Shown here: positions 23,556 to 31,709 of the stretch, one piece after another
Numbering within the stretch: the stretch's first letter is position 1
How the letters are laid out: every line of letters starts with the position of its first letter
Assembly (NCBI GenBank): GCA_002104945.1
Contig: MCFH01000089.1
Span: 62,001-126,000 of the forward strand
Reading direction: 5' to 3'
From: Piromyces finnis finn
Taxonomy: Eukaryota; Fungi; Neocallimastigomycota
DNA length: 64,000 nt
Position numbers and translations under genes: made by a program
The notes under the pieces: model-generated
Told to the model about the DNA's origin: nothing
The model's input: only the letters and a program-made list of their open reading frames with translations
Database searches by the model: none

Positions 23556-26500
23556 TTACCTATGCTTATTACTAGTAGGAGTTTTATGAGTTGGTTTACT
23601 TGTTTTAGTAACAGGCTTTATTGTCTTGTGTGGAGTAGTAGAACTAACTTTAGAGTTGTAGTTGATAAGTTTATCATCTACTTCAATATTGTTAGAAATA
23701 GGTTCATCAAACGCATCAAATACATTAACTTTACTTAACAGTTCAGTAGTTCCCTTAAAAGACTTATAACTCGAAACCAGTTCACTATACATATTTTTAT
23801 CGACTTTTCCTGTAACTTTTATTATTTCATTTACACTATGGCTCATATCTTTTTTTATTGTTTTTACACAACTACTAAATTCTTCTTTGGTATTATAATT
23901 AGGATTTTCGCTGTTACTACCAACTTCTTTATATAACTTTTTGGCATCATCAATAGATTCGATTTTGTCAAATTTTTTACTGCTAATTTTATTATAGTTT
24001 GTTGCTACTTTATTTGCATTTTTTAATTTGGTTTGTTCATAGGTTTCAATATTATTTATACTGTCACTTTTATCTTTGACCTTACTTAGGAAATTATTTA
24101 TATTTGATAATGTATCTAAATCATTAACATCATCCACATTTCTGAAAAATGATGGTTCGTGCTTTATTAATTTATATTTCATTTTATTGCAACGCTTTAT
24201 ATCTATTAATTGATATCTTCCGGTGGATTCATCTGTAAATATAACCATGGCGTCGGATTTAGATTTAATTACATCATTAATTATAATTTCCAAATCTTCT
24301 GTCCTAGGTTCGACTACTTCTAAATTTCCAAATCTGTATTTTGTAATACCATTGCCATCTTTGTTTACATAATTTTCAACTTTTCCTTTAATGTGTGGGA
24401 AGTTTTTACGATTCTCTTCAATAATCTTATCTAACCCTTTATATAATAATTTTACACGTAGATAATTTAATCGATCAGATAATGTCGAATCATCATTTAT
24501 ATTTATACGTTCTAAAGAATCAAAATTGTTAGATTTACTTACTGCTGTTGATATGACTTCATCGTAATTGTTTATCAAGTCAATTAAATGAAGGGCTTCT
24601 TCATTATGACCTTCTGGTTGCTCGTAGTTATTGAAACGTTCTATTTTTTCTTTTATTTTAGAAGCAATATCCTTAATCTCGTTAGTCATCTCATCTGAAA
24701 TGTTATTATCAGAACTTCCATCAATATCATTTATAAGCTTACTCTTTAAACTATCAAAATATTCTTTAACATATAAATTTTCGGAATTATTTATTATAAA
24801 GTCTTTTACATCATCCAAGTTTTTAATGACGTGGTTTAAATTAAGCTTATTGGTCGACTCAACATTCGATTTATTTAAATCTTTGGTTTTAATTCTGTGT
24901 TTCTCGATTAATCCTCTTATTTCTGAATCCCCTTCTGAATAGACTTCTTCAAACTTTTCGACTAAACTATCTTTCAATTTATAAACCATTTCTGAATTAT
25001 TTACGTATTCCGCATCGGCATTACTGTAGTTCTCTTTATCAAATATACTTTCTAAATAATCAATTTTGTGATATAAATTTATCAAATAATTCCTAATTTC
25101 AGTATCTTCTTTGTCCACATCATTTATATTTTTAAATATTTCTAATATCTGCTTAAATTCTTCAGTCCTATCAGCATCATCCATACTATTTTTGTCAAAA
25201 TTGTGAATCATTAATGAATTATCAATGACATTTTCACTAACATTAATAAAGTTGTATACATCTCCCAAAATACTACGTAATATTTCATCAGCATATAATG
25301 ATTGAGATTCAATATCTGGTTTTATAATTGCGTTTATTTTATTATTGTTTATTTCTAATTCACCATAGCTACCTTTATACACTTCAAGAGCTTTGTTAAA
25401 TAAATATTCCATTTCGTGCAATTTCTCTTCATTAATATTAATCAGCGACTTGTCTTCTGAATACTCAGACTTTGAATATTTGTAATGGTACCCATTGATC
25501 GTTTCATAAAGTCCTTTAATAAACTTTTTACTTTCTTCTTCACTCATTTCATTAATGTGATCTTGAAAACTGTTCACGCTTATTTCTAAGACATTAACTA
25601 TCGATTCAGCATTTTTACACAATTGGTTAGGTTCGGAAATAACGTTATTTTCGGAATCAATCAATATATTTTCGGAATCGTACATTTTAACTATACTTAA
25701 TGTTGAATGTAATGACTTTTCAATATTATAATTTCTGGATATCGTCATCGAAATTGAACAACTACCACCTGTTGCCCTTTTTCTCAACTTACTAACGCCA
25801 CATTGATTAATTTTCGCATTACTTATTTGATTAATCGAATTATGCAATTTAACGTTATCAACAAGATCATTAAAATTACCATTTAACTCTTCGTTACTAT
25901 CAAAATGAAGCAATCCTTTATACGATGGATATTTCAATTTTTCTAAGATGATTTTGTTATAATTATCAATTACAAAAAATTCTTCGAATGTTAATTTATT
26001 GGAACCCTCGTCAATCGTTTCTAAATCAATGTTTCTACTTACCAACAAATTATTGGTAATTTCGTTCATGGATAAATTATTTGGGTCTGTTTCACTACAT
26101 ATGATGTTATTATCTCCATCCTTATTATCTGCTAGCATGGCACGGAAAACTCTAGCGTCAATAACATTAAGGCAAAATTTACTATCAAGATTTTCACCGT
26201 ACTTATCTTGAATAATGGTATCTTCAGAAACATCATCAGCACTTAAACTATAATCTTCCGGATTTAAAATCGTTCCATCAGATAATTTAAATTTAATACC
26301 ACATTCAGCAAAAAGACCTATACCTGTTTTTATTACGTACTGATCATCAAAATCAAAGTCTTTGTTATACATATCGCTATTAATTTTCATTAAATTTATT
26401 AATTTATAACTCATTTCATTATACTCATTATCACTATTAATTTCGTAAATATAATCATCAACATTACTTAATGTAAATGCATGTATGGTCTTTTCGGAAA

Positions 26501-31709: not shown

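Follow-up and report, generated by a model that had tools for sequence, protein, structure and literature searches.

A two-unit protein of 2717 residues with a predicted secretion signal, possible antagonistic cargo of a fundsalphavirus-type element in the gut fungus Piromyces finnis

Do fundsalphavirus-type elements arm rumen fungi as killer plasmids arm yeasts? The question is raised directly by one gene in a 64,000-nucleotide stretch of the Piromyces finnis genome (hereafter the window). This type of element has already been catalogued; its cargo, and why gut fungi keep it, lack explanation in the available part of that catalogue (PMC7017919). The gene, on the minus strand at 23556..31709, is a stop-free open reading frame of 8154 nt that encodes 2717 aa and needs no intron to reach full length. 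Its frame is intact throughout, in agreement with the initial annotation, which was made from the letters alone. What is new here is an undescribed, secreted-type protein family whose processing loop is conserved and in which one domain, modelled with confidence, has no structural match.

Reading-frame, block and profile comparisons indicate a plan of two tandem units, each with an A domain, a variable region, a Cys/KR loop and a B region in that order, followed by a tail. The protein is mostly acidic, Asn-rich, helical and repeat-prone. Hydropathy, and relatives with an N-terminus of the same type, predict a signal peptide at aa 1-19 (31653..31709; all features of the protein lie on the minus strand), and this hydrophobic stretch suggests secretion. 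Domain A1 (aa 20-325; 30735..31652), delimited by profile and model, has an alpha+beta fold and carries the conserved C-x5-C pair C233/C239; domain A2 (aa 1481-1790; 26340..27269), placed by profile and tree, has the equivalent pair C1673/C1679. The paired motifs from which a duplicated domain had been proposed are all in place, within aa 29-298 of A1 and aa 1487-1747 of A2. Behind each A domain stands a motif of the GIxLxAxC type, detected by profile and in the alignment of relatives (aa 561-569, 30003..30029; aa 1796-1804, 26298..26324). Self-comparison gave two copies of a short helical-type repeat, at aa 461-519 (30153..30329) and aa 844-902 (29004..29180). Sequence and relatives define loop 1 (C1025..KR1035, KR1040..C1046; 28572..28637), with predicted Kex2 sites in a predicted disulfide loop, and loop 2 (C1970..KR1977..C1984; 25758..25802). 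Region B1 (aa 1047-1480; 27270..28571) is acidic and, by pairwise test and relatives, related to region B2 (aa 1985-2500; 24210..25757), which model and profile predict to be all-helical.

Because the composition is biased, with N, I, K, L and D abundant, we tested the repeats against shuffled sequence under two shuffle schemes. A1 against A2 gave a local score of 121 that 0 of 300 shuffles reached in either scheme (z 4.5 and 3.7); the shuffle maximum was 120, so the pairwise test alone argues for the duplication with moderate strength. A profile built from 9 non-Piromyces domain-A sequences recovered A2 at 36.8 bits, against 4.0 bits for the best of 60 local shuffles. The duplicated domain thus withstood statistical self-testing, as did the proposed repeat of ~55 aa (aa 461-519 and 844-902; z 7.6 and 9.3, 0/300 shuffles). 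The duplication proved larger than originally described, with the post-loop regions duplicated too: aa 1011-1149 and aa 1954-2097 matched at z 6.9 and 5.5 (0/300 shuffles), these regions supplied the top two of 190 block pairs compared all-against-all, and BLAST also paired them (aa 1021-1168 with aa 1962-2116, E 4e-6). A B2 profile from 5 other proteins detected B1-type regions in the relatives P0035, P0002 and P0039 at 11.7-45.4 bits (shuffles 1.9). It did not place B1 of the 2717-aa protein above 8 bits, so B1/B2 kinship within this protein rests on the pairwise test and the relatives. Duplication during assembly was ruled out as a source of the repeat by the 21% identity between A1 and A2 and by the old split between them in the tree of A domains.

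Kex2 cleavage after KR is established for secreted fungal precursors, and our literature search found nothing on Kex2 in gut fungi. The initial annotation had proposed cleavage in two short Cys-bracketed dibasic loops, each downstream of an A domain. Loop 1 follows its A domain at ~700 aa and loop 2 at ~180 aa. Two C..KR..C loops arose by chance in 0.8-1.1% of shuffles and one alone in 6-16%, which is not rare; KR sites are frequent, with 6 in this protein and 7 in its 2241-aa neighbour. The evidence for loop 1 lies in its shared position: the C..KR..C arrangement recurs at the equal position in all five long members that have a unit 1 (7 long members in all), three named genera among them, and the sole KR among the 1802 residues of P0040 falls inside it. 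Loop 2 is weaker. KR stands between the cysteines in 2/7 long members, both Piromyces proteins, a Cys pair occurs without KR in 2/7, and 3/7 have neither. Four shorter members (648-1259 aa) stop before the loop or are without it, and in single-unit genes KR sites come ~50 residues further on, with no Cys pair. The proposed Kex2-type cut in a Cys-bracketed loop thus gains support at loop 1 and is less secure for loop 2. We consider that Kex2 probably cuts after KR1035/KR1040, and it is reasonably likely that a C1025-C1046 bond would then join an N-terminal chain of ~117 kDa (A1 plus variable region, reckoned by length) to a B1-A2 chain. Processing at loop 1 is the best supported of these predictions.

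Relatives are few. Searches returned 1/7967, 5/7995 and 7/7987, and 11 among 1.84 billion representatives, and every named relative comes from Piromyces, Neocallimastix or Anaeromyces. Five are fragment gene models of the same species, located on three further contigs and one that is 100% identical; one of the fragments is 100% identical to part of this protein and annotated in Piromyces finnis. All relatives except L001 are gene models, in which wrong splices are possible. L001, of 2101 aa, is encoded by one ORF at 40-6345 that fills a 6576-nt contig, with 39 nt ahead and 231 nt behind, a shape that resembles a full-length unspliced transcript. The single-unit genes P0037 and P0038, each starting with a signal-type N-terminus, bear out the unit plan. 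So does a tree built from 17 A domains, which puts the four A2 copies and the two single-unit domains on one side of a 97/94 branch; hence the two units separated before these genera did. P0002 carries an extra, recent internal duplication and P0035 is without A2; the family gains and loses modules. Members differ in the length of the stretch from A to the loop, about 180 to 780 aa, and A and B remain alignable.

Outside the gut fungi, relatives numbered 0/82 among pattern matches in viral contigs (two core-gene searches there gave 0/17 and 0/603), 0/114 in prokaryote genomes and none in phage records. One metagenome set gave 0/137; another scan gave 2/599 matches, both too short to provide context. 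The ESM Atlas returned no usable match for the homologues P0037 and P0010. Our literature search found no paper on this protein or on the cargo of fundsalphavirus elements, and the main text of the Mycodnaviridae paper has 0 matches for Piromyces or Neocallimasti-.

The initial annotation had assigned the protein to no recognised family, and that assignment was borne out: Pfam gave 0 significant families, and NCBIfam, PHROGs and PDB sequences gave no significant match. Modelling of domain A from 21 sequences reached a pLDDT of 73.8 and a pTM of 0.65, with the C-x5-C pair conserved. In the fold search it had 0 matches with E<=0.001 and 0 with Z>=5 (best Foldseek E 0.7 against PDB and 0.07 against viral models; best Z 4.3). 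The model of unit 2, from 7 sequences, was poorer (pLDDT 56, pTM 0.31, with aa ~1775-1993 below pLDDT 50); it gave 0 matches with E<=0.001 and 0 chains with Z>=8 of 48161, its best matches, which include those to the helical B2, being generic helical bundles at Z up to 7.7. An absent match for domain A and unit 2 is not proof of a new fold; the check with models and Foldseek that had been proposed for enzymatic toxin folds yielded no enzyme fold match for these parts.

An enzyme could be hiding in the unit-1 variable region, aa 330-1024. In B2, the alignment of relatives contains an invariant G-H-x-x-E-x-x-H-L (aa 2367-2375; 24585..24611), a possible metal site. A metalloprotease reading of an HExxH-like stretch in P0040 was rejected, as that stretch is not conserved, and so was a nucleotidyl-transferase reading of LILAAG, which we take to be a motif of such enzymes and which is modelled here as helix. 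B1 and B2 are acidic (net charge -32 and -38) and have no hydrophobic hairpin; leaving aside the signal and the opening helix of each A domain, no 19-residue window scored above 0.94. An acidic B without such a hairpin argues against a translocator of the diphtheria type.

What carries this gene? Coding sequence, in long ORFs, takes up 76% of the window. Family searches of 23 ORFs identified, at 35448..63962, genes for UDG, the N-terminal half of RPB1, a capping-enzyme-like SAM methyltransferase, RPB2, D5, PolB (PF00136 at E 2.7e-66 and 2.6e-39), the C-terminal half of RPB1 and an SNF2-type helicase. RPB5 had no Pfam match among these ORFs, in which a 194-aa ORF remained unmatched, and capsid families were not detected. 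Part of the core set is repeated at 1-11815, head to tail with 53878-64000 and ~54 kb from it, at 79-96% identity: 79-87% over most genes and 96% from 7092 onward, a step that suggests recombination or conversion between the copies. Window edges cut parts of the helicase and PolB genes at 62445-63962 (-) and 45-1061 (+), and further element genes without a family match lie at 3526-5718, 7075-7914, 12530-13378, 50213-50797 and 51167-51613. PolB, D5, an SNF2-type helicase, a SAM methyltransferase, RPB2 and the two RPB1 halves are the genes reported for fundsalphavirus endogenous elements (Gong, Zhang, Han 2020, PMC7017919). The host, a gut fungus, is shared as well, and Table S1 of that paper places a polymerase pair ~53.9 kb apart on one contig of the same species. 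By gene list and polymerase spacing the element thus appears to be of the fundsalphavirus type, integrated and related to giant viruses. The two differ in that the available text of Gong et al. describes core genes and no secreted cargo (PMC7017919); in the accessible supplement the word 'toxin' has 0 matches, and its gene maps may include this locus.

Between the helicase and UDG genes, ORFs, hydropathy and family search outline a block of five genes at 13727..35102. Signal-peptide-like N-termini occur in 4/5 genes inside this block (13.7-35.1 kb) and in 0/13 outside it. Besides the 2717-aa gene, the block holds a 232-aa Cys-rich protein (13727-14425 (+)), hydrophobic at both termini in the manner of a GPI anchor, and a 2241-aa intron-free ORF (15652-22377 (-)) with a signal-like start, seven KR sites and a long Ser/Thr-rich part with a Gly-rich hydrophobic stretch. 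Part of the latter resembles a B-lectin (E 2.2e-5, which falls short of the Pfam cut-off), and there is a weak match to a lectin-like bacteriocin (E 0.03); this ORF looks like a second antagonistic protein. An aerolysin label, suggested by its Ser/Thr-rich part, was discarded, the family search having found no match. The 585-aa ORF at 32172-33929 (+) is of cytosolic type, has no signal and is divergent from the 2717-aa gene; it is a candidate self-protection gene. Neither the 232-aa nor the 585-aa neighbour has a family match. Last, a 222-aa secreted-type gene (34434-35102 (-)) has one hevein domain (E 3.6e-10), 13-aa tandem repeats and a Thr/Ser/Lys linker, with no catalytic domain.

A gene model on another contig of the same species fuses parts of domain A with parts of the hevein and 585-aa genes, which implies that the block recurs elsewhere, rearranged; broken copies of the 2717-aa gene travel with the same neighbours. 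No end repeats were found in 11.8-36 kb and the element's ends were not located; the block may therefore be host DNA flanked by two insertions. We judge the gene to be probably, though short of certainty, cargo of the element.

RNA-type contigs from 4 runs, assigned as RNA from their GT-AG joints, were placed on the gene, and those of 3 runs cover most of it. A 106-nt GT-AG stretch at 24437..24542 (-) is skipped in 3/4 runs, which takes the frame out and leaves a product of 2390 aa; an 89-nt stretch at 29283..29371 (-) is skipped in 1/4, also out of frame, and leaves 781 aa, ending where the annotated fragment P0004 ends. The joints bear GT-AG ends on the strand of the ORF and show nuclear transcription of the gene. 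Among the contig pieces listed, none crosses either stretch unspliced. The skipped residues align with relatives, clearly for the 106-nt stretch and more weakly for the 89-nt one; as they are conserved among relatives, the joints look cryptic, and the skipped stretches are likely cryptic introns. Annotation missed the gene because splicing-guided models break it into fragments. Neither these truncating joints nor the viral setting figured in the initial annotation.

We tentatively propose that the cargo of a killer-plasmid-like element is here an antagonistic protein, cut by Kex2 and held together by disulfide bonds. Its two-unit precursor, for which a secretion signal is predicted, would be carried by the fundsalphavirus-type element and cleaved at loop 1 by Kex2; the chains, still linked by a disulfide, would act on competing gut microbes. 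A second cut, at KR1977, would occur in Piromyces only. Domain A, which is conserved, and the helical region B would form a frame for folding and delivery, and the variable region from A to the loop, the most divergent in length and sequence, would be the active part. The gene appears suited to transcription without introns by the polymerase that the element encodes; in the nucleus, host splicing removes coding sequence from it, so that less full-length protein would be made. Toxicity is the weakest step, suggested by the plan of the protein, its lectin-bearing secreted neighbours and the precedent of killer plasmids, and the word toxin is meant as an inference.

Several readings would account for parts of the same evidence. 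Class I viral fusion proteins likewise combine a signal with a cut site in a Cys loop, and the protein might serve the particles or spread of the element, as an envelope or cell-to-cell transfer protein cut by a host furin-like protease in the manner of F1/F2 or SU/TM. As the 23 ORFs scanned include no capsid family, spread would otherwise go unexplained. Yet the C-terminal anchor and the hydrophobic peptide after the cut that mark class I fusion proteins are absent, the residues after both KR sites being hydrophilic, and domain A has no match among predicted viral structures; we regard this role as very improbable. The least probable reading is a secreted protease trap or inhibitor, with the basic loop as bait for trypsin-like proteases and domain A as a cystatin-like module. 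Many of the best 50 fold-search rows for domain A are indeed of cystatin, PepSY or propeptide type, over model residues ~140-300, but at Z<=4.3 and an rmsd of about 3-5 A they lie below the level of unrelated models, and KR suits Kex2 in the secretory path better than a bait outside it. It is improbable, too, that the locus is a relic whose gene is active on the free element and whose chromosomal copy gives only spliced, shortened, functionless products. The two out-of-frame joints (24437-24542 in 3/4 runs, 29283-29371 in 1/4) and the fragmentary annotation of other copies in the species would fit; 8154 nt without a stop, and an independent 2101-aa relative that fills its whole 6576-nt contig as one ORF, do not. 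Such a relic would in any case bear on present use and not on the nature of the protein.

The main rival is a processed but harmless extracellular protein of the gut fungi, serving adhesion, matrix or scaffold, from a host family that the element captured or came to adjoin. It would suit an acidic, Asn-rich, helical, repeat-prone sequence with no catalytic fold, the internal duplication of P0002, and the single-unit Anaeromyces genes, which have low-complexity tails and no Cys loop. Named relatives are confined to one fungal group, whereas fundsalphaviruses, according to the part of the survey available, span six phyla (PMC7017919). A host gene would sit poorly, however, with an intact intron-free ORF of 8.2 kb from whose RNA splicing removes conserved coding sequence, with the lack of any cell-wall anchor or known binding module in the protein, and with broken copies that keep the same neighbours; we rate this rival as somewhat unlikely.

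Should the antagonistic reading be true, killer elements would have originated twice in fungi; the family would also be a source of new antimicrobial proteins and would bear on how stable gut-fungal cultures are. A bolder form of this reading, which we consider unlikely, would have gut-fungal fundsalphavirus elements be killer elements without capsids, descended from Pithovirus-related viruses and separate in origin from the killer plasmids of yeasts, with this protein founding a polymorphic family of multi-chain toxins of undescribed fold and cryptic splicing barring the host from capturing working cargo.

How far does the resemblance to known toxins go? Diphtheria and botulinum toxins are AB toxins made as a single chain and nicked inside a disulfide loop. 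Like them and like the dsRNA killer toxins K1/K28, the protein has in its sequence a basic cut site between two cysteines, at loop 1, followed by a helical region. Unlike the AB toxins, it has a doubled plan and no enzyme fold, hydrophobic hairpin or receptor-binding module that we could find, and the hydrophobic translocation helices that follow the loop in AB toxins are absent, no window in B1, B2 or the tail exceeding 0.94. The precursors of K1/K28 are about a tenth of its size.

Another parallel is with the cytosolic linear plasmids of yeasts, described in the available parts of the sources as carrying their own transcription genes and a cleaved, disulfide-linked toxin (PMC13556262). Like the killer plasmids and zymocin, the present system comprises a virus-related element, AT-rich and free of introns, that carries transcription genes of its own, a product predicted to be secreted, cleaved and disulfide-linked, and a chitin-binding gene nearby (PMC13556262, PMC13348850). 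The AT-rich genes of pGKL1/pGKL2-type plasmids are mis-processed in the nucleus (PMC4431711), a further likeness, although there, on the available account, it happens by polyadenylation and here by splicing, and here the element is a single unit of ~54 kb. No sequence likeness was found. Instead of a protein-primed polymerase, of which there was none among the 23 ORFs, it has PolB with an exonuclease domain and a D5 primase-helicase; in place of zymocin's components we recognised no GH18 chitinase among those ORFs, only the 222-aa hevein-domain gene, and no small gamma-toxin. The protein lacks some of the traits tested for each of the zymocin, K1/K28 and classical AB groups and belongs to none of them; at most it works like the toxin of a killer element.
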